From: a virus
Lineage: Duplodnaviria > Heunggongvirae > Uroviricota > Caudoviricetes
Reading direction: 5' to 3' (one strand)
IMG/VR virus record: IMGVR_UViG_2721755676_000001
DNA: 64,000 bases
Shown here: piece by piece, positions 1,319 to 53,800 of the stretch
Numbering within the stretch: the first letter of the stretch is position 1
Layout: each line of letters begins with the position of its first letter
Position numbers and translations under genes: made by a program
Notes under the pieces: model-generated
What the model was told of the DNA's origin: nothing
Database searches by the model: none
Seen by the model: only the letters and a program-made list of their open reading frames with translations

Positions 1319-1342
1319 TCGGTCTGGGAGCTTATTTAAAGA

Positions 1343-1397
1343 CCTGCTTCTGTATATATAAATAATAAGTAACTTATTAAATATATACGGAAGCAGG
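1343..1397. repeat. 55-bp near-palindromic element, copy 1 (17-bp inverted arms CCTGCTTCTGTATATAT / ATATATACGGAAGCAGG around AT-rich core AATAAGTAACTTATT)
   Basis: Read directly; near-identical second copy at 34357-34409. Confidence 0.8.
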
Positions 1398-1513
1398 CTT
1401 CGTAAGACATGCCAGACCTAATTAAACACCCCAGAAAACAAGTTGGTTAGCAGATGCAGTAAACAAGTTGTTTTAGAGCGCATGGACGCGCTCTGTGTGT
1501 TTTAGAGGGATCT

Positions 1514-3428: not shown

Positions 3429-5003
3429 ATGGAATTGAACGACAAACAAATTAAGGATCTGGTGGCGCGACGCCACCCGGAATACGAAAAGAAAAAAGAA
3501 CATTGGGACTTCCTCGCCAGCACTTACGCTGGCGGGCGTGGTTGGTTTACAGACAATATCTTTCGTTACTTTAAAGAGGGAGATCAGGAGTTTAAGGAGC
3601 GTGTTGAGCGTGCCTATCGCTTCAACCACACTCGTGAGGTGGTAAACCTCATCAACAAATATCTCTTTAAAGAAGACATTCATAGAAATATCGAAGAGGC
3701 ACCAGAGCAGATCCGCAATTTCTGGAAACGTGCGACTCGCCAGAATGCCTCTATTGACTCATTTATGGCCGCCATTGATTTGCAGTCGTCTATTTACGGT
3801 CGCATATGGGTTGTTGTCGATAGCACGATGAGTGGTGATGTTGAGTCAGTAGCTGACGAGAAAAAGAAAGATGCTCGCGCCTACGCCTACTGGATTTCAC
3901 CTCAGCAAATGCTGGATGTGGCATGGGACGACGACGGGAATATGTTATGGGCGTTAATTGTGGAAGTCGCTCGCGATGACGCAGACCCTTTTACTTCTAC
4001 AGGTCAGGAATACCAACGTTATCGTCTGTGGACACAAAACGAGTGGTATCTGTTCCGTGAGGAAGTGAAGAAGGGGGCTGGTGGAGCAGGTCGTCGTCAG
4101 GCAAAAGTTATTTTAGAGGACAGCGGTGAGCATAATCTCGGCGTAGTTCCTGTGTTTCCTGTTGATTGTATTGGAGAAAGTGAATCACCGTATTTCAGCC
4201 CATCGTTGATCGATGATATCGCTTATCTTGATCGTGCGGTTGCAAACTATCTGTCAAACCTTGATGCCATTATTCAGGATCAGACATTTAGCCAGTTGGC
4301 TATACCGGTACAGTCGCTTTTACCTGGTGATGAAAACCACACTAAAGTGCTTGAAATGGGCACAAAGCGAGTCTTCACCTACGATTCTGAAGGTGGAAAC
4401 CAGCCGTTTTATCTGTCACCAGACCCGAAACAAGCTCAGATGATCATCACTACGATTAAGACGGTGATTAACGAAATCTACCATTCAGTTGGTGTAGCTG
4501 GTGAGCGAACGAAGCAGGACAACGCACAGGGAATCGATAATTCATCTGGTGCCGCAAAAATGTATGACTTCCAGCGTGTAAATAGCTTGCTTGTCACAAA
4601 AGCAGAGCGTCTGGAAAGGGCTGAACGCCAAATCATGCTACTGGTTGCGAAATGGATGGGGGTAGATCTGGACGAAGACCACTCTTTAATTGCGTATCCA
4701 GAAAGTTTCGATATTCGTGGCCTTACTGATGAATTTTCTGTTGCCGAGAAACTGTCATTACTTCAGGCACCGGACTCTGTACGTCGTCACCAGATGGAAA
4801 TGCTTATTGAGAAGATTTTCCCGAACATTACTGAGGCGATGAAAAAGGAATTTGATAAAGATCTCTTGAATTTTCCTCCAAAAAATGATCTAAATACCCT
4901 TGAAAATAAGTCAGTACTTACTTATGATCGTGGTGCAGCCCAAGAAAGCGGGCAAGATCAACCCCGAGGGAATGGGGACTCATCTACTCAAGAGAACGAG
5001 TGA
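3429..5003 (+). CDS. portal protein (putative)
   Basis: 524-aa ORF directly after large terminase, followed by scaffold and capsid; AAGG RBS. Confidence 0.7.
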   Translation: MELNDKQIKDLVARRHPEYEKKKEHWDFLASTYAGGRGWFTDNIFRYFKEGDQEFKERVERAYRFNHTREVVNLINKYLFKEDIHRNIEEAPEQIRNFWKRATRQNASIDSFMAAIDLQSSIYGRIWVVVDSTMSGDVESVADEKKKDARAYAYWISPQQMLDVAWDDDGNMLWALIVEVARDDADPFTSTGQEYQRYRLWTQNEWYLFREEVKKGAGGAGRRQAKVILEDSGEHNLGVVPVFPVDCIGESESPYFSPSLIDDIAYLDRAVANYLSNLDAIIQDQTFSQLAIPVQSLLPGDENHTKVLEMGTKRVFTYDSEGGNQPFYLSPDPKQAQMIITTIKTVINEIYHSVGVAGERTKQDNAQGIDNSSGAAKMYDFQRVNSLLVTKAERLERAERQIMLLVAKWMGVDLDEDHSLIAYPESFDIRGLTDEFSVAEKLSLLQAPDSVRRHQMEMLIEKIFPNITEAMKKEFDKDLLNFPPKNDLNTLENKSVLTYDRGAAQESGQDQPRGNGDSSTQENE

Positions 5004-23871: not shown

Positions 23872-26800
23872 ATGTGGTACAGGGAAGGTACTATCACATT
23901 TACACAGGGCAGCAATACTCTGGTTGGGGCAGGGACAGCCTGGAACGTAACAGCTAATGGTGTGTTGCCGGGGATGATCGTCATTGGCCCCGACAATAAG
24001 CTGTATGAGATCAAGCGCGTAACCAGTGATACGAACATTGTTCTCTCAGAACCTTATACCGGCGAAACTCAGTCTGAAGTTCCGTGCCGAATCATTACGA
24101 CCTATGAAGGCGACTTAACACAGTTTAGCGCGCGCTTTACTGCGCTAATGTCGCGTATGTCGGCTGATTCCAAGTCCATACGCAGTTGGTTGACTGCGCT
24201 GGATGAGGTGACAATCGAGCGTGAAGACGGTACAGAAGTGACCGTTAAGCCGCTAATGCAGATCGCCAACGAGCACAACGAAAACGTTGAGTGGTATAAA
24301 AATAACACTGACGCGATTGATGCTGCTGGCGACAAAGCTCGTGAGGCGGCGGCCAGTGCTGCCGCAGCAGCAAAAAGCGCCAATGCCGCTGGAGAAAAAG
24401 CCTCTCAAGCGTCTCAAAGTGCATCCGCTGCGGCATCCTCACAAAGTGCCGCAAGTGCGAGTGCAACTGCTGCGAAAAAATCTGAAACGAATGCTGCAGC
24501 GTCACAAAAATCTGCAGCCACTTCTGCATCCACCGCGACCACGAAGGCGTCAGAAGCTGCCACCTCAGCCCGGGATGCGGCGGCCTCAAAAGAGGCAGCG
24601 AAATCATCAGAAACGAACGCATCCTCAAGCGCCAGTAGTGCCGCTTCCTCGGCAACGGCGGCAGGAAATTCCGCGAAGGCGGCAAAAACGTCCGAGACGA
24701 ACGCCAGGTCTTCTGAAACGGCAGCGGGACAGAGCGCCTCAGCTGCGGCAGGCTCAAAAACAGCGGCTGCGTCGTCTGCCAGTGCCGCGTCAACAAGTGC
24801 CGGGCAGGCCTCAGCCAGTGCCACCGCCGCCGGAAAATCGGCAGAAAGTGCCGCATCGTCTGCTTCAACAGCCACAACGAAGGCTGGCGAAGCCACTGAA
24901 CAGGCCAGCGCAGCAGCGAGGTCTGCTTCCGCAGCGAAGACATCCGAAACGAACGCGAAAGCGTCGGAAACCAGCGCAGAATCCTCAAAAACGGCTGCCG
25001 CATCGTCCGCCAGTTCGGCGGCGTCATCGGCATCATCGGCGTCTGCTTCAAAAGATGAGGCGACCAGACAGGCGTCAGCAGCGAAGGGCAGCGCCACGAC
25101 GGCATCCACGAAAGCAACAGAGGCGGCAGGCAGTGCGACGGCAGCATCTCAGAGCAAAACTGCTGCTGAATCCGCTGCGACTCGTGCGGAAGCTGCTGCT
25201 GATCGTGCTGAAGAGATTGCCGGTGCAGTTGCGATGGAAGACGCAAGCCTTACAACTAAAGGTGTTGTGAAACTTAGCAGTGCTGTCGACAGCACCAGTG
25301 AATCGCTGGCCGCAACGCCAAAAGCAGTTAAAGCAGCCAATGACAATGCGAATAGCAGGGTGCCATCTAACCGAAAAGTTAACGGTAAAGCACTGACTGC
25401 GGATATCAAATTAACGCCGAAAGATATTGGTACTTTAAATTCAGTAACGATGTCTTTCTCTGGCGGGGCAGGGTGGTTCAAACTGGCTACGGTTACCATG
25501 CCACAAGCGAGTTCCATCGTTTACATCGCATTGATTGGTGGCGCTGGTTACAACGTCGGCTCCCCACATCAGGCAGGCATTTCAGAACTGGTTCTACGAG
25601 CAGGCAATGGAAACCCCAAAGGGATTACAGGTGCTTTGTGGAAGCGTACAGCTGTCGGATTAACGAATTTCGCCTGGATCAACACATCCGGCGATACATA
25701 TGATATTTACGTTGAGATTGGCAATTATGCGACTCGTGTAAATATCCATTGGGATTGTACTGCAAATGCGACAGTTTCTATTTATACCTCGCCAACATAT
25801 TCAGCGAGTAAGCCTTCCAGCGTTACCGATGGTGTTGTTTATACGATGTATAGCACACATCAGAAACCGACGCCGTTAGATATTGGAGCACTGCCAACAA
25901 CCGGAGGAACAGTTTCAGGTCCGTTGTCTGTTACAGGTGGATTAACTGGTTCATTGAATGGTAATGCAAGTACAGCCACGAAATTGCAGACGGCAAGATC
26001 TATCGGTGGAGTTGTTTTCGACGGTTCTGCAAATATTAACCTTCCAGGTGTAAACACTACGGGTAATCAGAACACCACTGGTAATGCTGCAACTGCTACA
26101 AAACTTCAGACTGCAAGAAAAATATCCGGTGTTCCATTTGATGGTTCTACTGATATCACTTTAACCGCTGCGCATGTTGCCGCTTTCGCAAGAAGGGCAA
26201 CAGGGTCATATGCGGATGCTGATGGTGGCGTGCCGTGGAATGCTGAATCTGGTGCTTACAATGTAACTAGAACAGGCGACAGTTATATTCTTGCCAACTT
26301 TTATACCGGTGTAGGTAGTTGCCGGACCCTGCAGATGAAGGCGCATTACAGAAATGGAGGTCTGTTCTACCGTTCCTCAAGAGATGGCTATGGTTTTGAA
26401 AGTGGTTGGGAGCAGGTTTACACGACTGGATTTATGCCTCAGCCGGCTGATATAAACGCGCCAACCGCTGCCGCTGGATGGTTAAATAGTGGTAACGGAA
26501 CGGCATTTACGACTGCTCAATTTATAACTTGGCTAAATAATCAGGGGGCATTTACAAACAAACATTGGATCGCACGGTGCTCATGGGCTTACGCCAACAA
26601 TAATTATATAGACGACACTGGTTGCGGTAGGATCGATCTATCTGGTTCCGTGATTGAGGTGTTTAGTAATAAGGCAACAAGCCACTACACTATTCGTGTT
26701 ACAACGACAACAACATCGGGTCATGGTGGTGTTAACAATGCGGAATTTATTTATGTGTACAATGGAAGTGATTATGCACCAGGCTGGCGTCGTTCTTATA

Positions 26801-28170
26801 ACACTAGAAACAAACCAACAGCTTCTGATGTAGGAGCATTATCGCTTTCTGGAGGAGCGTTAACTGGCGGATTAACTGCTGCTGGCGAGATTATTTCAAA
26901 ATCGGCGAATGGTCTGCGCATTGCCTACGGAAACTACGGATTCTTTATCCGAAACGATGGTTCAAGCACATACTTCATGTTGACCGATTCGGGTAACAGC
27001 CTGGGAACCTATAATAGTTTAAGGCCGCTTATCATTAACAATGCCAATGGTGCTGTTAGGATCGGTAATGGACTCAATGTTACTGGCGGCATCAATGGTA
27101 GTTTGAACGGTAATGCTTCAACAGCTACGAAGTTGCAAACAGCGAGAAACATCAATGGTGTTAAGTTTGATGGTTCAGGCGATATCAACATTAATACATT
27201 GGTATCTCGTGGCCGAGTTACGGCGTTAAGCGGCTCTACTCAAGGCACTGCTGGCATTCAAATGTATGAGGCGTACAACAATAGCTACCCGACCACGTAT
27301 GGCAACGTATTGCACATGAAAGGTGCGAGTGCTGCTGGTGAGGGCGAGTTGCTTATTGGCTGGAGTGGTACGAGCGGTGCACATGCGCCAGTTTTCATTC
27401 GCTCACGAAGAGATAACACAGGTGCAGCATGGTCAGCGTGGGCGCAGGTATATACCGCTAAGGATTCAATCCCTGGTGTGAATACAACTGGTAATCAGAA
27501 CACTACTGGTAATGCCGCAACCGCCACAAAATTGCAGACAGCAAGGAAAATTGCTGGTGTGGCGTTTGATGGCTCTGCCGATATAACTTTGACTGCGGCT
27601 AACCTTAATGCTTACACGAAAACAGAGGTAGCAAACCTTCTAAGCTCCTATGCAAGCAGATCATCACTGACAGGCTATAGTGGCAACCTGGATATTGTTG
27701 CTGAAACACTGGTTGTCAAATCAGGCGGTAGTGGAGGGTTTGCTATATGGGATATTGGCACAACTACTAGCGGTGCCAATATGTACATTGATCCAAACCC
27801 AGGTATCAATACAGTTTGGCGTTCAACGTCTTCAAGGCGCTATAAAAAGGATATTGAAACATTACAAGATCGATATGCTGATGAACTTTTGTCATTAAGA
27901 CCTGTTTGGTATCGTTCAATTTGTCGAGGTGACCGAAAGGATTGGGGGTATTACGGCCTTATTGCTGAAGAGGTTGGTGAGATTGCCCCGCAATATGTCC
28001 ATTGGCGTGAACCAACAAATAATGATTCTCCAGAAGATATTTCCTCAAATGGTATGGTCGCTGAAGGAGTGATGTATGAGCGTTTGGTTGTACCACTCAT
28101 TCATCATATTCAGCAATTGACCAAAAGGGTTGAGGAGCTTGAAACGAAGTTAAATTCACCTAAAGAATAA
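23872..28170 (+). CDS. side tail fibre protein (Stf-like) with C-terminal intramolecular chaperone (peptidase S74-like) domain
   Basis: Long Ala/Ser/Thr-rich segment (ASEAATSARDAAASKEAAKSSETNASSSA...) as in lambdoid Stf; repeated NTTGNQNTTGNAATATKLQTARKI modules; C-terminal SSRRYKKDIETL..GYYGLIAEEV; AAGGAG RBS. Confidence 0.85.
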   Translation: MWYREGTITFTQGSNTLVGAGTAWNVTANGVLPGMIVIGPDNKLYEIKRVTSDTNIVLSEPYTGETQSEVPCRIITTYEGDLTQFSARFTALMSRMSADSKSIRSWLTALDEVTIEREDGTEVTVKPLMQIANEHNENVEWYKNNTDAIDAAGDKAREAAASAAAAAKSANAAGEKASQASQSASAAASSQSAASASATAAKKSETNAAASQKSAATSASTATTKASEAATSARDAAASKEAAKSSETNASSSASSAASSATAAGNSAKAAKTSETNARSSETAAGQSASAAAGSKTAAASSASAASTSAGQASASATAAGKSAESAASSASTATTKAGEATEQASAAARSASAAKTSETNAKASETSAESSKTAAASSASSAASSASSASASKDEATRQASAAKGSATTASTKATEAAGSATAASQSKTAAESAATRAEAAADRAEEIAGAVAMEDASLTTKGVVKLSSAVDSTSESLAATPKAVKAANDNANSRVPSNRKVNGKALTADIKLTPKDIGTLNSVTMSFSGGAGWFKLATVTMPQASSIVYIALIGGAGYNVGSPHQAGISELVLRAGNGNPKGITGALWKRTAVGLTNFAWINTSGDTYDIYVEIGNYATRVNIHWDCTANATVSIYTSPTYSASKPSSVTDGVVYTMYSTHQKPTPLDIGALPTTGGTVSGPLSVTGGLTGSLNGNASTATKLQTARSIGGVVFDGSANINLPGVNTTGNQNTTGNAATATKLQTARKISGVPFDGSTDITLTAAHVAAFARRATGSYADADGGVPWNAESGAYNVTRTGDSYILANFYTGVGSCRTLQMKAHYRNGGLFYRSSRDGYGFESGWEQVYTTGFMPQPADINAPTAAAGWLNSGNGTAFTTAQFITWLNNQGAFTNKHWIARCSWAYANNNYIDDTGCGRIDLSGSVIEVFSNKATSHYTIRVTTTTTSGHGGVNNAEFIYVYNGSDYAPGWRRSYNTRNKPTASDVGALSLSGGALTGGLTAAGEIISKSANGLRIAYGNYGFFIRNDGSSTYFMLTDSGNSLGTYNSLRPLIINNANGAVRIGNGLNVTGGINGSLNGNASTATKLQTARNINGVKFDGSGDININTLVSRGRVTALSGSTQGTAGIQMYEAYNNSYPTTYGNVLHMKGASAAGEGELLIGWSGTSGAHAPVFIRSRRDNTGAAWSAWAQVYTAKDSIPGVNTTGNQNTTGNAATATKLQTARKIAGVAFDGSADITLTAANLNAYTKTEVANLLSSYASRSSLTGYSGNLDIVAETLVVKSGGSGGFAIWDIGTTTSGANMYIDPNPGINTVWRSTSSRRYKKDIETLQDRYADELLSLRPVWYRSICRGDRKDWGYYGLIAEEVGEIAPQYVHWREPTNNDSPEDISSNGMVAEGVMYERLVVPLIHHIQQLTKRVEELETKLNSPKE

Positions 28171-32269: not shown

Positions 32270-32397
32270 GTTATTAAGCCCCCCCTATGTACCTATCATT
32301 AAACCTTTACACCGCAGCCGTAGGCATTTAGGCTATATCACATATAAGAAAACAAGTTGTTTCAGACGATAATTATATACGCAAAGGGAACTCTCCA

Positions 32398-33425: not shown

Positions 33426-33430
33426 AAATC

Positions 33431-33461
33431 ATGCATTGGCGCGTACATTGCGCCAATGCAT
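33431..33461. terminator. 12-bp perfect stem-loop (ATGCATTGGCGC-GTACATT-GCGCCAATGCAT) between convergent genes; possible bidirectional terminator
   Basis: Read directly; no strong T-run. Confidence 0.45.
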
Positions 33462-33477
33462 AACTACAGTGTCAGCT

Positions 33478-34245
33478 TTATGCCGCGCTAACACTATGTT
33501 CAGTCCTAACCACCCCAACCTTCACAAAAGGGCTACCGTAGCTTGGTGGCTTCTTGATTAATTTGCCTACATACAGTTTTCTAATATGCTCATCGGCTAT
33601 TCTGCCAACAAATTCATAACGTTTTGTGTCGGGGCCAAGAGCTATATCCCTTGTAAAGTACTGCTGAGAACCGGCTTTGACCCAGCATTCAATCTGATAA
33701 ACTTCCATTATCAGCCCACCATATGTAGCGTAGGCATATTTGAGATTCTCGTCTCTTGGAACCTTTGCCCATACGCCACGCGTAGCTTCATATAATGCCA
33801 GAGCGGACATTCCTGACTTGTAGGTGCTGTTTAGCAGGAAGGCAAGACCGGCGTGCTCAGGAGCAATTTCAGTTTCCTCTTGCAGCACTAAGTGATGGTA
33901 GGCGTCCAGTGATATTCTGCCCATCATGGAACCACTTCCTCGTACCTTATTCGTAAGCTCTCCGACCCCCATAAGGTCGATGCATGTCGCCTCAACAAGT
34001 TTGGCTGTGGTTTCATCCATACCATGACGAAGTATATCTATGCCTAATTTTTTATTAGCCAAAAGTTCTTTGATCCGCATGGATTTGGGAGAGTCATCGG
34101 GATACTTGATGTGATCGAGACAACGAGTCGATTTGCCTTTTCCTATGTAAAACGGTCTTTTCATCTTGTCTTCTGTATCATAGAGACAGTAAACATAGTA
34201 TTTAGCCTTATCCAATGATCTCGCGTATACCGATAAATCGTCCAT
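33478..34245 (-). CDS. GIY-YIG domain endonuclease (homing-endonuclease-like)
   Basis: N-terminal YYVYCLYD...PFYIGKGK matches GIY-x10-YIG; lone minus-strand gene among plus-strand genes. Confidence 0.75.
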   Translation of the reverse strand: MDDLSVYARSLDKAKYYVYCLYDTEDKMKRPFYIGKGKSTRCLDHIKYPDDSPKSMRIKELLANKKLGIDILRHGMDETTAKLVEATCIDLMGVGELTNKVRGSGSMMGRISLDAYHHLVLQEETEIAPEHAGLAFLLNSTYKSGMSALALYEATRGVWAKVPRDENLKYAYATYGGLIMEVYQIECWVKAGSQQYFTRDIALGPDTKRYEFVGRIADEHIRKLYVGKLIKKPPSYGSPFVKVGVVRTEHSVSAA

Positions 34246-34356
34246 TATTGCATCTCTTTGCTACTGACTAATGCGTTCTATTTTACACATAAGTTTTTAA
34301 TCAATTTAACAGGCTCAAAGTGTAGAGCTTCTGGGCGTCTAAGACGACAAGTTATG

Positions 34357-34409
34357 CCTGCTTCTGTATATAAATAATAAGTAACTTATTAAATATATAC
34401 GGAAGCAGG
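34357..34409. repeat. 53-bp near-palindromic element, copy 2 (identical to 1343-1397 except one TA unit)
   Basis: Read directly; lies in divergent intergenic region before replication module. Confidence 0.8.
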
Positions 34410-34492
34410 TCTTTTAAAAGACACCACCAGAACAACTCCCTTCCGTTTCCACTTCCAAAAACTGCCACCAGTCGCTATCATCCGCTCATTGT

Positions 34493-35266: not shown

Positions 35267-35309
35267 CTAATACTAGAAAACAATTTGTTTAAAAAACAAA
35301 GGAAAGCAC

Positions 35310-40628: not shown

Positions 40629-40840
40629 TCGTATTAAGTAAAAGGGAGAAAGAAACGCTTCATGAAATCAGTAAGTGGCCGGAGTTCCCTGAGTACTGGA
40701 AGCCTAAAACGCGAGCTAAGTTAGAGCGTTTAGGGTTGGTTGCAAACGTTTCTGAAACGTGGTGCTCGGCCAACTACCAGTTAACTGATAAAGGGAAAGT
40801 ATTGCTACAGCAATTAGTAGAATCAGGAGTGTTAAAATGA
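40625..40840 (+). CDS. hypothetical small protein
   Basis: Translationally coupled (ATGA overlaps) with ligase and next gene. Confidence 0.5.
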   Translation: MIVLSKREKETLHEISKWPEFPEYWKPKTRAKLERLGLVANVSETWCSANYQLTDKGKVLLQQLVESGVLK

Positions 40841-40989
40841 TTCCATACATCTCATTAGCTTTTATGGGTGGCTTCCTTATCGGCTTCGGCATCTGTCGTG
40901 ATTTAATTAAGCAGGAACTTAAAACCAAAACACTGTGCATCGGAAAGCGTGTGTATCGGGTAGTTCATGAAACAAAGGTTAGAAAATGA
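40837..40989 (+). CDS. small membrane protein (50 aa; not in ORF track)
   Basis: ATG 40837 overlaps upstream stop, stop overlaps next ATG at 40986; hydrophobic LAFMGGFLIGFGI. Confidence 0.4.
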   Translation: MIPYISLAFMGGFLIGFGICRDLIKQELKTKTLCIGKRVYRVVHETKVRK

Positions 40990-41313: not shown

Positions 41314-42054
41314 GTATAAGATGACTTTGTTTTCGTTGAGACGCGACTGTTTGAACTTAAATACAAGTGCAAACGAAGAAGTCTATCTGGCAGTAGCCTA
41401 ATAAGCCAAACACCAGCGAGGTCAGTTTCCAGCCTCGTTACCGAAATGGGACACACTGAGCGAGTGTGATTGCAGAACGCAGGAGGGAACATGAATGTTC
41501 CCTCCGATGAAGTAACAGAATGGGCGGTTGGTATATTTTCAACTCCATATGACTCCCGGATTCTTAGCCACTGACCGCCCATCCTGTTACGTCATTTTGT
41601 TCAATTATGTCGTTTATACTGGGTTAAAAAGCGGCGACGTAGCCCGGCTGGTATGGTTAGCCAGCACACAACGTTGAGGCCATTACATTTTTATCAATTC
41701 TAAGGTTCTATTCACAGAGATACCGGCGAGCGTTGATATGTAACATGTTGGGCAAACATTCAATCGGAGTAGTGGCCTCAACGTTGTGAAGACAGGATTG
41801 TTGTGTAGGTTTAACCACTGTTGCCATTGGTGCCTGTTTTCACAACAAATGATTCCATACATCACATTGTATAAATTACAAAGTAGGTGCTGTCCTCAGA
41901 AACATCATCTACTTAAAGATTTTGCCTTCTACTATTGAGCGAAGTCGAAAGCGTCTGGCACTAACGAAAAGTGCAAGTAGCGGTGCGTTTCCTGGCAGAA
42001 ACTAAACCGTTGCGATTGGCACTGTTGAGTAATAAATACTGGCAGTGCTGAATT

Positions 42055-42126
42055 GATGGTGTAGCTCAGCGGTAGAGCAGTTGGCTGTTAACCAACTGGT
42101 CGGTGGTTCGAATCCACCCACCATCG
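42055..42126 (+). tRNA. tRNA-Asn (anticodon GTT)
   Basis: Cloverleaf folded by hand: acceptor GATGGTG/CACCATC, anticodon loop CTGTTAA, T-arm GGTGG-TTCGAAT-CCACC, discriminator G then CCA. Confidence 0.85.
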
Positions 42127-42134
42127 CCAATTTA

Positions 42135-42218
42135 GGGGAGTTAGTCCGTAGGGGCAGCGGAGTAGACTGTAAATCTACTGTCATGGCGACTCGGGTGGTT
42201 CGACTCCATCACTCCCCA
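42135..42218 (+). tRNA. tRNA-Tyr (anticodon GTA), long variable arm
   Basis: Acceptor GGGGAGT/ACTCCCC, anticodon stem GTAGA/TCTAC with loop CTGTAAA, long variable arm, TTCGACT T-loop, CCA encoded. Confidence 0.8.
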
Positions 42219-42225
42219 CCAAATT

Positions 42226-42298
42226 GCCGGTTTAGCTCAGTTGGTAGAGCGCCTGCCTTGTAAGCAGGATGTCAGCGGTTCGAGTCCGCTAACCGGCA
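42226..42298 (+). tRNA. tRNA-Thr (anticodon TGT)
   Basis: Acceptor GCCGGTT/AACCGGC, D-arm GCTC-AGTTGGTA-GAGC, anticodon loop CTTGTAA, T-arm AGCGG-TTCGAGT-CCGCT, CCA encoded. Confidence 0.85.
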
Positions 42299-47061: not shown

Positions 47062-47159
47062 CCCCTCTTCTCCCTGCGCGAATGGCTTAGTTCCCTGTTC
47101 GCGCAGTGCTACATTAAACACACTAGTAAATAATTTGTTTTCATAACAAAGGATTAGCC

Positions 47160-50805: not shown

Positions 50806-53800
50806 CTTCTCACTTGGGGAGTCGGCTCTAAAAGCAGAAAACGCGGTGAAGATTGCCAGAGAAGCTGGCTACACCGCTGTAATTTCAGCAGATAGCATGA
50901 ATATTGCGAGCGTTATTCCACTACAACGTGCCGCTGGTGACGACATGGCGGTTATTTGTGGTGTGAAACTAAACATTGTTGATGATCCCACATACGAGCA
51001 CCGGGCTAAACTTGCTAAAGAATCTATGAGATGTATGGAATCATTAGAGCGAGGACGTAACTACTCGTTTACCGCTCTAATTAAAAATGAGAAAGGATAT
51101 CGCGACATCTGCGAACTAATGACGGCGGCCAACACACGAGAACAGTTCTACTTTGTACCGCGTCTCTCGCTCGAACAGTTGGTTTCTACATATGCCAAAG
51201 GCAACATCATCCTGCTTACTTCCGACATCGGTAGCGTGTTCCAACGCAACGATTTTGCAAAAATCATAAGCACACTGATTACAGCGGGTGGAAAAGACAA
51301 CTTCTATAGTGTGGTTTATCCGCACCCTACCCCATTCTACGACCAGATTAACGTCCGGGCGATGAAAGTCGCCAGCGCATTGAAAATAGAGCCAGTGGCG
51401 TTCTATCCCGCTTATTACGAATCGATCGACGATGCAGACATTAAAGACATTGCGCACATGGTTACGAACAACATCAAAATCGACCAGCCGCATCGTCTGC
51501 GTATCCCCCACCAGCGAGATAACGCCGTCAATGGTCGCCGCCATCTCCTTGAGGCGCTTAAAGCCTTCTCCGTTCGCATGGATGTGCCGGTAACAGCTGC
51601 AATGGCCTCAACAACGCAGGATACCATTATCGATGCCTGCACATGGCGCTGGCATGAATTGCCGCCAGCACTGCCAAAGATGGCAGACGACGAGCCTGCA
51701 ACGCTGATGAAACTGGCTGTTGCAGGGCTGCGTAAACGTCTTACCACAAAAGAGTTTGGCTACACACCACCTGCTTCTGAGAACAGGGTTTATGTTGAGC
51801 GGCTAAAGTACGAAATGGACACGCTGACTCGCCTGGGATTCTGTGGTTACTTCCTGATGGTGCGCGATCTGATGAATCATAGTTGTGAAACTGGCATTCC
51901 CGTTGGGCCTGGTCGTGGTTCCTCTGCCGGTTCTCTGGTGGCGTGGTGCATAGGCATAACCAACGTCGACCCAATCCGTCACGGTCTTCTGTTTGAGCGT
52001 TTCATCAACCCTGAGCGTCTCGACTTGCCGGATGCGGACTTGGACTTCAGCCAGGCACGTCGCCATGAGGTGATCGAGTATCTGAATGAACGCTACGGCG
52101 AAGATTACGTTGCAGGCATTCCGAACTTCACCTACCTGGGCGCAGCCTCTGCACTACGTGACACCGCTCGTATTTATGGTGTGGAGTCCGCAGATATGGC
52201 GGTATCAAAAGAGCTGAAGAACGTCGAGGATGATAGCCTTCCATTGGAAGAGCTGCGCGAACAACTGGCAAGTCTCGACAAATACGCAACAAAATATCCT
52301 GATGCATTCAATGCAGCCTGCAAGTTACAAAGTCTTATGCGTGGCTTTGGTAGACATGCGGCAGGGATGATCGTAGCAGGTGTTCCTCTGACAGAACGTA
52401 CACCGGTTGAACGCCGTGGTGACGCGCGTTGTATCGCATTTGACAAGCGTTACTGCGAGGCTATGGGCCTAATTAAACTGGACGTACTTGGTCTGGCAAC
52501 TCTCGATTTGCTCGATAGTGCAAAACGCTACATAAAAGAGAACACAGGTGAAGATATCAATCTTGATGCCATTTCTCTTGAAGATCGCAAGGTGCTGGAT
52601 GGTTTTGCTGCTGGGTACACTCAAGGTGTTTTCCAGCTTGAATCAGGCCCAATGCGCAAGCTGCTTAAAGATTTAGGTGGTGGAATTGAGCCAATGAGCT
52701 TTAAAACGGTTGTTGCTACGACTGCGCTCTTCCGGCCGGGGCCAATTCAGTCAGGCATGTTGGATGACTATGTTTCTGTAGCCAAAGGCTTTATGACGCC
52801 GGAATCATTACACCCCGTTCTTGATGAACTTACCGCAGAAACAAATGGCGTGATTCTCTATCAGGAACAGACGATGAACGCGACTCGATTGCTTGCTGGC
52901 TTCACAATGGCTGAAGCTGACGGCGTTCGTAAAGCGATCGGCAAAAAAGACATGGAAAAAATGAAGAGCATGGGCGAGAAGTTCATCGTTCAGGCTCAAG
53001 CTGGCTGGATAGACGTTGAGCTGGAAGATGGCACTACACAGCGCATTCACCGTGCGGAACATTTTAAATGCGAAGACGGAACTCTGAAAACTGTCGAAGA
53101 GGCACTTGAGTACGGCGCAAAACTACCTATAAACGCAGTACGCGTTACAGCGTCACATCCAGGGCTATCAGAGATGAAAGCGAAGGAGATCTGGACCGCA
53201 TTCGAAAAGAATGGTGCCTACCAGTTCAACAAATCACACTCTGTTGCTTACTCCTTAATCAGTTATCAATCTATGTGGTTGAAAACTCATTATCCCGCGG
53301 AGTTCTTCGCTGCTGCTCTCACTATTCTTGGCGAAGATAAACACCAGGGGCTGGTTAAAGATGCGCTGACCTATGGTATTCGCGTATTGCCACCAGACGT
53401 TAACGTGTCATCTAACCGAATCGAGATCCGCACGCTTGAAGATGGCAGCCAGGTGCTGTATGCGCCCTTCTCTGCTGTGAAAGGGTGTTCTGAGAATGGC
53501 TGCCAAGCCATCATGAGAGCGCGAGAAAAAGTTGGCGGCAAATTCGAGTCACTGGCGCAATTCGAAGAAGCTGTCGAGAAACGTGCCTGTAATAGTCGAG
53601 TGCGCGAATCGCTGCAAAAAGTAGGGGCGTTTGCATCCATCGAGCCAGGCAGTCTGCCAGCAACTGATCCAGAGCGCCTACGCGACCAGGCTGAATTGAT
53701 GGGAAACCTTGTCATAGATGCAGTTAAAGCCTCACGTCCGTTTGAGATGAACCCCAAACGTTCGGCTGAAATTAACGTACTCATGACGCGGATGGCGGCT

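Follow-up and report, generated by a model that had tools for sequence, protein, structure and literature searches.

Near-identical hairpins at three fixed intergenic positions of SSU5-like phage-plasmids, probable terminators at the ends of transcription units

Two near-identical palindromes, copy 1 (c1) and copy 2 (c2), lie at borders of large gene blocks in the stretch of viral DNA analysed here (64,000 nucleotides of IMG/VR record IMGVR_UViG_2721755676_000001, hereafter the window). We read them, with moderate confidence, as paralogous RNA hairpins that end transcription units as terminators or insulators, c2 being strong and c1 leaky. Such hairpins would act in the plus-strand transcript and punctuate a genome in which nearly all genes share one direction. 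In the mechanism we infer, c2 would be an intrinsic terminator of the Rho-independent type, its stem being GC-rich at the base and AU-rich over a long upper part, with a U-tract after it. It would halt transcription from the partition, toxin and defence-cargo region short of the promoter of the replication genes, and the lytic replication genes would be kept silent behind it in the plasmid state. Copy 1 would be a paralogue without the U-tract, embedded in a palindrome of about 98 nucleotides after the last gene of a ParB-like operon: at most a leaky stop, and perhaps rather a hairpin that stabilises the 3' end of the RNA or serves for its processing, upstream of the region that regulates terS. 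The preliminary description of this DNA had seen the palindromes as heading the two modules and had proposed three alternatives: a shared regulatory switch, a structured DNA site (origin, partition or packaging) or a target linked to the neighbouring GIY-YIG endonuclease. What survives of this is a single cis-acting family at the borders of big gene blocks, plausibly with a common role; the endonuclease link and the heading role do not, the elements being better seen as ending the preceding transcription unit.

By sequence comparison, the window is an SSU5-like phage-plasmid of Escherichia coli. It is 97-99.5% identical to the Escherichia phages CMS-2020a, PhiR41_1 and Cyrano (pLF82), and about 80% identical to Salmonella phage SSU5 and to Klebsiella phage-plasmids. 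The features discussed below are listed in Table 1.

Table 1. Coordinates of the palindromes and of other features in the window
Feature	Position	Strand	Remarks
Copy 1 (c1), inner hairpin	1343-1397	+	55 nt; 17-bp arms with one T.G
Copy 2 (c2), inner hairpin	34357-34409	+	53 nt; equals copy 1 minus one TA
Extended palindrome at copy 1	1321-1418	+	About 98 nt; outer stem and intermediate pairs
TTCTGG, weak upstream half of copy 2 outer repeat	34329-34334	+	Partner CCAGAA at 34427-34432
CCAGAA, downstream half of weak copy 2 outer repeat	34427-34432	+	
T-tract TCTTTTAA	34410-34417	+	Directly 3' of copy 2; U-rich tail of the proposed terminator
Promoter-like region of the replication module	34453-34481	+	TTCCAA, 17 nt, TATCAT; then GATAAGTAAGTAAC
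Short GC-rich hairpin (GAGCGC...GCGCTC), then TGTGTGTTTTAG	1474-1495 (region 1474-1512)	+	Terminator scan
GIY-YIG gene, LEM-3-like	33478-34245	-	Pfam PF22945 (LEM-3_GIY-YIG); PADLOC PD-T4-3, E = 1.3e-23
Ordinary GC-rich hairpin	33428-33465		Local fold scan; left border of the cargo slot
ATAAGTAAGTA sites	3399, 4906-4925, 6826, 16893, 23809, 29334, 34494, 41296, 54869	mostly +	
AAACAANTTGTTT sites	1436-1448, 1461-1473, 32350-32362, 35278-35290, 47128-47140		
AATGATTCCATACATCTCAT sites	40836-40855, 41848-41867, 51026-51045		One inside the DNA polymerase III alpha gene
Three-tRNA gene cluster	42055-42298		

That the two palindromes differ by a single TA unit, that their 17-nucleotide inverted arms carry one mismatch (T/G at arm position 9), and that AAAGA precedes copy 1 and TCTTT follows copy 2 had been reported in the preliminary description, and all of it was confirmed. 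The 16-nucleotide arm CCTGCTTCTGTATATA and its inverted partner (with one mismatch) occur exactly four times in the window, namely in the two palindromes; shuffled sequences gave a mean of 0.38 matches, and none of 100 shuffles reached four. The lower stem is GC-rich, CCUGCUUC pairing with GAAGCAGG, and at c1 it carries an AT-rich upper stem with a 3-nucleotide loop. Read as plus-strand RNA, copies 1 and 2 do form secondary structures, folding at -30.5 and -30.0 kcal/mol (z = -8.6 and -8.2; 0 of 200 shuffles as good). The minus-strand RNAs fold at -26.4 and -25.4 kcal/mol, some 4-5 kcal/mol worse, because the T.G pair becomes C.A. The 88-aa gene that closes a ParB-like/ABC-ATPase operon stands upstream of copy 1, and terS starts about 120 nucleotides downstream of it; copy 2 is flanked by the minus-strand GIY-YIG gene and by a 246-aa gene, the first of the DnaB and primase module.

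At copy 1 the 55 nucleotides first described are only the inner part of the palindrome, whose full extent is about 98 nucleotides. The outer stem pairs GGTCTGG (1321-1327) with CCAGACC (1412-1418), which brings the full stem to about 45 bp; the whole hairpin folds at -48.4 kcal/mol (z = -9.3) and begins 2 nucleotides past the TAA stop codon (1316-1318) of the 88-aa gene. The outer helix is also part of the c1 consensus structure derived from 30 relatives. The corresponding repeat of copy 2 is weak or absent at many c2 loci because the upstream flank was swapped, and in many genomes only its downstream half is present. A third copy, c3, which is described below, has an outer repeat of 9-14 bp (GTCTGGGAGTT with AACTCCCAGAC) that shows a double change between lineages. 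In relatives, each of the three copies has a motif of the C(T)CCCAGAC type on its 3' side; TCTGG motifs also turn up repeatedly near the copies. A longest-complement statistic for the outer repeat was no better than in shuffled sequences; it is the steady position and sequence at c1 and c3, with a few double changes, that argue for an outer stem at these two positions.

Is the element a common repeat of the host chromosome? It is not. Among 5426 complete E. coli genomes, 259 carry it, mostly in two copies and sometimes in three, and 1037 of the 1039 places at which it occurs are on plasmids of roughly 108 kb. One chromosomal place was inspected: its neighbours are genes shared with SSU5-like plasmids, so that it apparently represents an integrated phage-plasmid. 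A pattern scan of IMG/VR and GTDB (one genome per species) returned 135 copies, spread over Escherichia, Salmonella, Klebsiella, Kluyvera, Buttiauxella and Yersinia. All but one of them, 134, fall at three orthologous places between genes: c1 upstream of terS, c2 ahead of the replication module, and c3 behind an adenine methylase gene. The last position, 3' of a phage N6-adenine methyltransferase gene, lies outside the window and holds a third copy in some relatives only. The 135 copies revealed no new insertion sites and no target-site duplications. These fixed positions, together with the plasmid location, mean that the element is neither a host repeat nor a mobile repeat: it is specific to the SSU5-like phage-plasmid group.

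For an unbiased comparison, the c1, c2 and c3 regions were gathered through their neighbouring proteins and not through the pattern of the element. The hairpin was present in all 73 orthologous c1 loci and all 74 orthologous c2 loci with full flanks, and at both it is better conserved than the surrounding intergenic DNA. Its length varies from 49 to 57 nucleotides among copies, through TA slippage and other insertions or deletions. The arms are near-invariant over 14 nucleotides at three dispersed sites and across several genera, which is more than structure alone requires. The core motif TAAGTA, which had been singled out in the preliminary description, is absent from c3 and from several c2 variants and is not a conserved part of the element. 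Rfam, applied to the whole window at its gathering threshold and to the surroundings of the two copies at a relaxed E-value, recognised only tRNAs and gave weak, meaningless matches to microRNA precursors. A literature search on the termini, cos sites, palindromes and terminators of SSU5 or pHCM2 returned nothing specific to the element, and we located no Rfam family and no paper that describes it.

Distant relatives illustrate how far the element can change. In two of them (L374 and L375, with methylases 61-64% identical), the arms are quite different in sequence and still complementary to each other. The full pattern built on the arms of L374 matched only the L374 copy itself, and its bare 14-mer gave unrelated chance matches only. 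The element has decayed in a diverged Klebsiella lineage. The relative K. pneumoniae pB-KP1118-1 (L215-L217), whose 246-aa protein is only about 55% identical, has at c1 a degenerate palindrome followed by a very strong T-tract, and c2 is absent; at c3 only the 3' half is found, with an arm matching the c1 of the same genome, and a separate ordinary terminator follows.

The variation among copies largely respects base pairing. Compensatory arm changes occur at several pairs, as in CCTGCTTTCG with CGAAAGCAGG and CCTGCGTCTG with CAGACGCAGG. In Klebsiella c3, T8-A replaces C8-G; the relative L340 has G6-C for T6-A and T9-A for C9-G; and pair 5 at c2 passes from C-G through U.G to U-A (in DNA, C5-G via T.G to T-A). 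In the c1 alignment of 30 relatives, 97% of cells are paired and both sides have changed at 4 pairs; the lower stem of c2, read on the plus strand, is 99.3% paired. One-sided changes that preserve RNA pairing are tolerated in the arms. On the plus strand, G.U cells number 17 against 2 A.C cells at c2, and about 37 against 3 at c1, counts in which cells linked by shared ancestry are not independent events. This asymmetry fits a plus-strand RNA better than a cruciform, in which it is not expected, and a C-to-T mutation bias, with shared ancestry, could be a partial source of it. There is no G.U asymmetry at c3. Uncompensated mismatches occur at c1 (A.A, G.A and C.A) and at c3. Judging from these alignments and from the tails described next, pairing and T-tracts at c2 are under selection.

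Wherever the upstream gene is co-directional (c1, c3, and c2 of SSU5 and Cyrano), the inner hairpin starts some 22-25 nucleotides after its stop codon; c1, for instance, lies 24 nucleotides past the stop codon of the 88-aa gene. The nearest gene upstream of c2 is on the minus strand in the window, and on the plus strand in SSU5 and Cyrano. A T-tract follows c2 and most c3 copies; it is missing at c3 of the distant relatives L362-366, L374 and L375. In the first 8 nucleotides past the stem, the number of T averages 5.2 at c2, 4.15 at c3 and 2.9 at c1, with a background of 2.0. At c2 this T-richness is kept across 15 different tail sequences, 73% of the tails having at least 5 T (background 3%). 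Copy 1 is followed by CTTCGTAAG, without a T-tract, and its tail CTTCGTAA has no U-rich tract. Since the tract is missing at c1 and at the distant c3 copies, termination cannot be the universal role of the family. No matching A-tract was found upstream of the stems, so any terminator would work on the plus strand only.

Scans for terminators and sigma-70 promoters called neither copy, because the long, bulged hairpin falls outside the stem and loop rules of the scan. Its stem of about 25 bp is AU-rich and atypical of terminators, ordinary short GC-rich terminators being present elsewhere in the same genome. Downstream of the two copies stand two further signals. The region 44 nucleotides past copy 2 is promoter-like and may serve the replication module: it falls below the scan threshold and is conserved across 53 variants as well as in a relative whose 246-aa protein is about 55% identical. 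The short GC-rich hairpin that the terminator scan reported before terS lies just upstream of the terS ribosome-binding site, which the longer region overlaps. It is kept in 46 of 46 variants, with a double change from GCGC to GCAC/GTGC, and resembles an attenuator or a site of antitermination for the late operon.

Expression data were available for Cyrano, which is 98% identical to the window around c2 and has a plus-strand gene upstream of it. Misson et al. (PMC9928086, S1 Table) published RNA-seq of the Cyrano prophage-plasmid in ten samples, as log2(FPKM+5) values in which 2.32 stands for zero. CYRAN_30, upstream of c2, ranges from 5.7 to 10.4 and CYRAN_31, which starts 193 nucleotides further downstream with c2 inside the gap, from 2.3 to 4.2 (PMC9928086). 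The drop across c2 exceeds 100-fold in most conditions and is smaller in the two lowest ones (about 10-fold) and in overnight LB (about 9-fold), these being gene-level abundances from a relative and not 3' ends (PMC9928086). Across c1, CYRAN_123 and CYRAN_1 differ by about 2-3-fold only, both near background (PMC9928086). The RNA pattern agrees with the sequence features: c2 strong, c1 leaky.

The long AU-rich stem, the near-fixed arms and the lack of a U-tract at c1 and at distant c3 copies leave room for a reader acting in trans or for a role at the DNA level. As to the former, there is a small chance that all copies are recognition points for one phage-plasmid-encoded factor, and together form a genome-wide punctuation switch. 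The near-invariant arms would then be what the factor recognises; it might be an antiterminator, a protein that binds RNA or one that binds DNA hairpins specifically, with RNase III perhaps taking part at the extended stems. If this is true, the copies would shield the replication and late modules from the expressed cargo in the plasmid state, and on induction all copies would be jointly read through or processed.

A role in DNA, as a cruciform or hairpin serving for packaging (cos or pac) at c1, for initiation of lytic replication or for priming, has in our estimate a small chance. The location about 120 nucleotides upstream of terS is the usual place of a cos or pac site, and the only hint of packaging there comes from two linear records: that of SSU5 (NC_018843.1) begins and ends inside c1, its position 1 corresponding to 1380 in the window, and that of Cyrano (OV696614.1) opens at the same point (window equivalent 1380/1381) and likewise ends inside c1. 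c2, for its part, sits just before the DnaB and primase module. An AT-rich centre would favour cruciform extrusion, and a DNA site could also account for the highly conserved arm sequence, for the C(T)CCCAGAC and TCTGG motifs around the copies and for the persistence of the element without a T-tract in distant relatives. However, a cos or pac site is expected once, by the terminase genes, whereas each genome has two or three near-identical copies, and c1 and c2 of the window are identical at the supposed cut site. Only SSU5 and Cyrano are linearised at c1, other virion-derived records not, and no palindrome in the SSU5 genome is more perfect than its c1, so that an assembly break there is plausible; the record ends may thus be either real DNA ends or an artefact of assembly or linearisation at a near-perfect palindrome. 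Our literature search for the termini of SSU5 found no paper. The large terminase subunit, moreover, matches Terminase_6N and Terminase_3 and not the lambda GpA family, which we take to be a pointer to headful packaging. The G.U asymmetry at c1 and c2, as seen above, runs against a cruciform and agrees better with a plus-strand RNA. A protelomerase-type telomere site, which the size of the palindrome had suggested, was rejected in view of circular plasmid deposits and of the multiple copies.

Why, then, are the two copies so alike? In the genome type of the window, c1 and c2 are identical but for one TA. In Cyrano, c2 differs at many interior positions despite flanks 98% identical, and its interior looks flipped. 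In two other lineages, homogenisation has given all three copies the same interior, peculiar to the lineage, and lineage-specific arm variants recur at different positions, sometimes as reverse complements. Flipped or homogenised interiors and shared arm variants argue that the near-identity of c1 and c2 reflects gene conversion and not a need for that exact sequence. Acting between copies 33-47 kb apart, this would be a small, clean case of non-coding concerted evolution within one replicon.

The copies might also be functionless remnants of a palindromic repeat of the MITE or REP type, whose likeness gene conversion maintains: the elements are long imperfect intergenic palindromes in clear concerted evolution, with uncompensated mismatches at c1 and c3 and decay in the diverged Klebsiella lineage. 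We nevertheless consider relics unlikely. All but one of the 135 copies occupy orthologous positions, no target-site duplication was seen, retention is complete at the c1 and c2 loci across genera, and the element is more conserved than nearby intergenic DNA. The apparent selection on T-tracts and pairing at c2, and the RNA drop across it, also speak for function.

Inverted repeats with near-invariant 14-nucleotide arms at three dispersed sites might also be double-stranded binding sites for a phage-plasmid protein, either dispersed centromeres as in N15 or repressor operators. The phage-plasmid encodes candidates for such a protein: ParA, its partner of 119 aa and two ParB-like proteins, the operon of the latter ending at c1. 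A dimeric site is expected to have a fixed spacing, yet the spacing of the arms varies among elements of 49-57 nucleotides, which would shift the phase of the half-sites. The tolerance of one-sided changes that preserve RNA pairing, the interior that can flip and the conserved T-tracts make this reading quite improbable as well, and other short palindromes of the window (AAACAANTTGTTT and ATAAGTAAGTA) are better operator candidates.

These short motifs are over-represented in their own right. ATAAGTAAGTA occurs 10 times (0.6 expected), sometimes as the 20-nucleotide palindrome ATAAGTAAGTACTTACTTAT; most sites lie about 20-100 nucleotides upstream of gene starts, and the core of the big palindrome resembles half of the motif. 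Operator, promoter element and 5'-UTR signal are all conceivable roles for it. The 13-nucleotide palindrome AAACAANTTGTTT occurs 5 times (0.4 expected), just upstream of terS (twice), parA, dnaB and a 702-aa gene, and may be bound by a shared regulator or by a partition protein. Two inverted copies of AAACAANTTGTTT are present in a diverged Klebsiella relative. A further 20-nucleotide sequence, AATGATTCCATACATCTCAT, is found three times at 95-100% identity, twice in direct and once in inverted orientation; in a diverged Klebsiella relative, a TGATTCCATAC...GTATGGAATCA palindrome adjoins the integrase gene. The window also has repeated coding units of 79 and 26 nucleotides (25960-27586 and 24469-24956) in a 1432-aa tail-fibre-like gene.

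Upstream of c2 the DNA is hypervariable. We compared the slot between the gene of the ParA partner and copy 2 in its equivalents (L004, L005 and L218-L297) and found at least 15 contexts and at least 8 alternative genes. The gene beside c2, in 72 loci, is PD-T4-3-like in 25, a 357-aa protein gene in 16, PDC-S31 (DUF2971) in 11, PDC-S49-like in 6 and PD-T7-5 in 4 (E = 4.5e-139), the remainder being other genes; PDC-S31/DUF2971 is the occupant in SSU5 and Cyrano. On the other side, an ordinary GC-rich hairpin between the convergent 119-aa and GIY-YIG genes already follows the par operon; this, like the minus-strand orientation of the gene upstream of c2, weighs against the terminator reading in the window. 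In these comparisons c2 appears as the fixed right border of a defence-gene hot spot, and the GIY-YIG gene of the window, going by its database matches, is a PD-T4-3-like anti-phage defence gene: a neighbour of the element and not part of it. It stands beside c2 in only 25 of the 72 loci (16 of 55 in the pattern-selected set) and never beside c1 or c3, which leaves no specific link of the kind that the preliminary description had proposed. That the palindrome is the cleavage or homing target of this endonuclease is scarcely credible: the gene adjoins c2 in the window and the same pair persists as a remnant in an unrelated 141-kb plasmid, but that remnant is a piece of the same region between IS elements, the protein matches the PD-T4-3 family, and the same slot houses PDC-S31, PD-T7-5, PDC-S49-like and other genes.

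Among clinical Enterobacteriaceae, phage-plasmids of the SSU5 type are common, and they carry resistance and defence genes. To our knowledge, almost nothing is known of how some 100 kb of co-directional lytic genes are silenced in the plasmid state while the cargo is expressed. A conserved terminator between the defence hot spot and the replication promoter would be a concrete piece of that insulation. c2 would also provide a fixed landmark for finding new cargo and defence genes in this group.

How do these elements compare with known systems? The dispersed centromere sites of N15 are short palindromes of fixed spacing bound by SopB. As there, a few inverted repeats are scattered around a phage-plasmid genome near module borders; unlike them, the elements described here vary in spacing, are followed by T-tracts and show a pattern of variation that fits RNA pairing. 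REP/BIME and ERIC sequences of enterobacteria and Correia elements of Neisseria are intergenic palindromes present in tens to hundreds of copies at non-orthologous sites, many of them spread by transposases, and they are supposed to be mRNA 3' stabilisers, terminators or processing sites. The resemblance lies in repeated imperfect palindromes within transcribed intergenic DNA just after genes, whereas our elements number two or three per genome, keep fixed positions in one phage-plasmid group and have no detectable sequence similarity to these families.

With intrinsic terminators the elements share a stem that is GC-rich at its base and, at c2 and most c3 copies, runs into a U-rich tract, a location 3' of a co-directional stop codon, compensatory and G.U changes that keep pairing, and, in the Cyrano data, an RNA abundance that drops across c2. 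They depart from them in their AU-rich stem of about 25 bp, in the arms shared and sequence exchanged among two or three copies, in the U-tract that c1 and some c3 copies of distant relatives lack, and in being nested in a larger palindrome. A comparable nesting is known from the tI/sib retroregulator of phage lambda, whose terminator hairpin lengthens into an RNase III site when transcripts read through it. Complementary segments likewise flank the inner hairpin at c1 and c3, and because the downstream half of the outer stem lies beyond the termination point or T-tract, the long stem could form on read-through RNA only. tI has a U-tract and c1 does not, and c2 has only a weak outer stem. At c1 and c3, the predicted extended stem and its partial covariation recall sib-like retroregulation.
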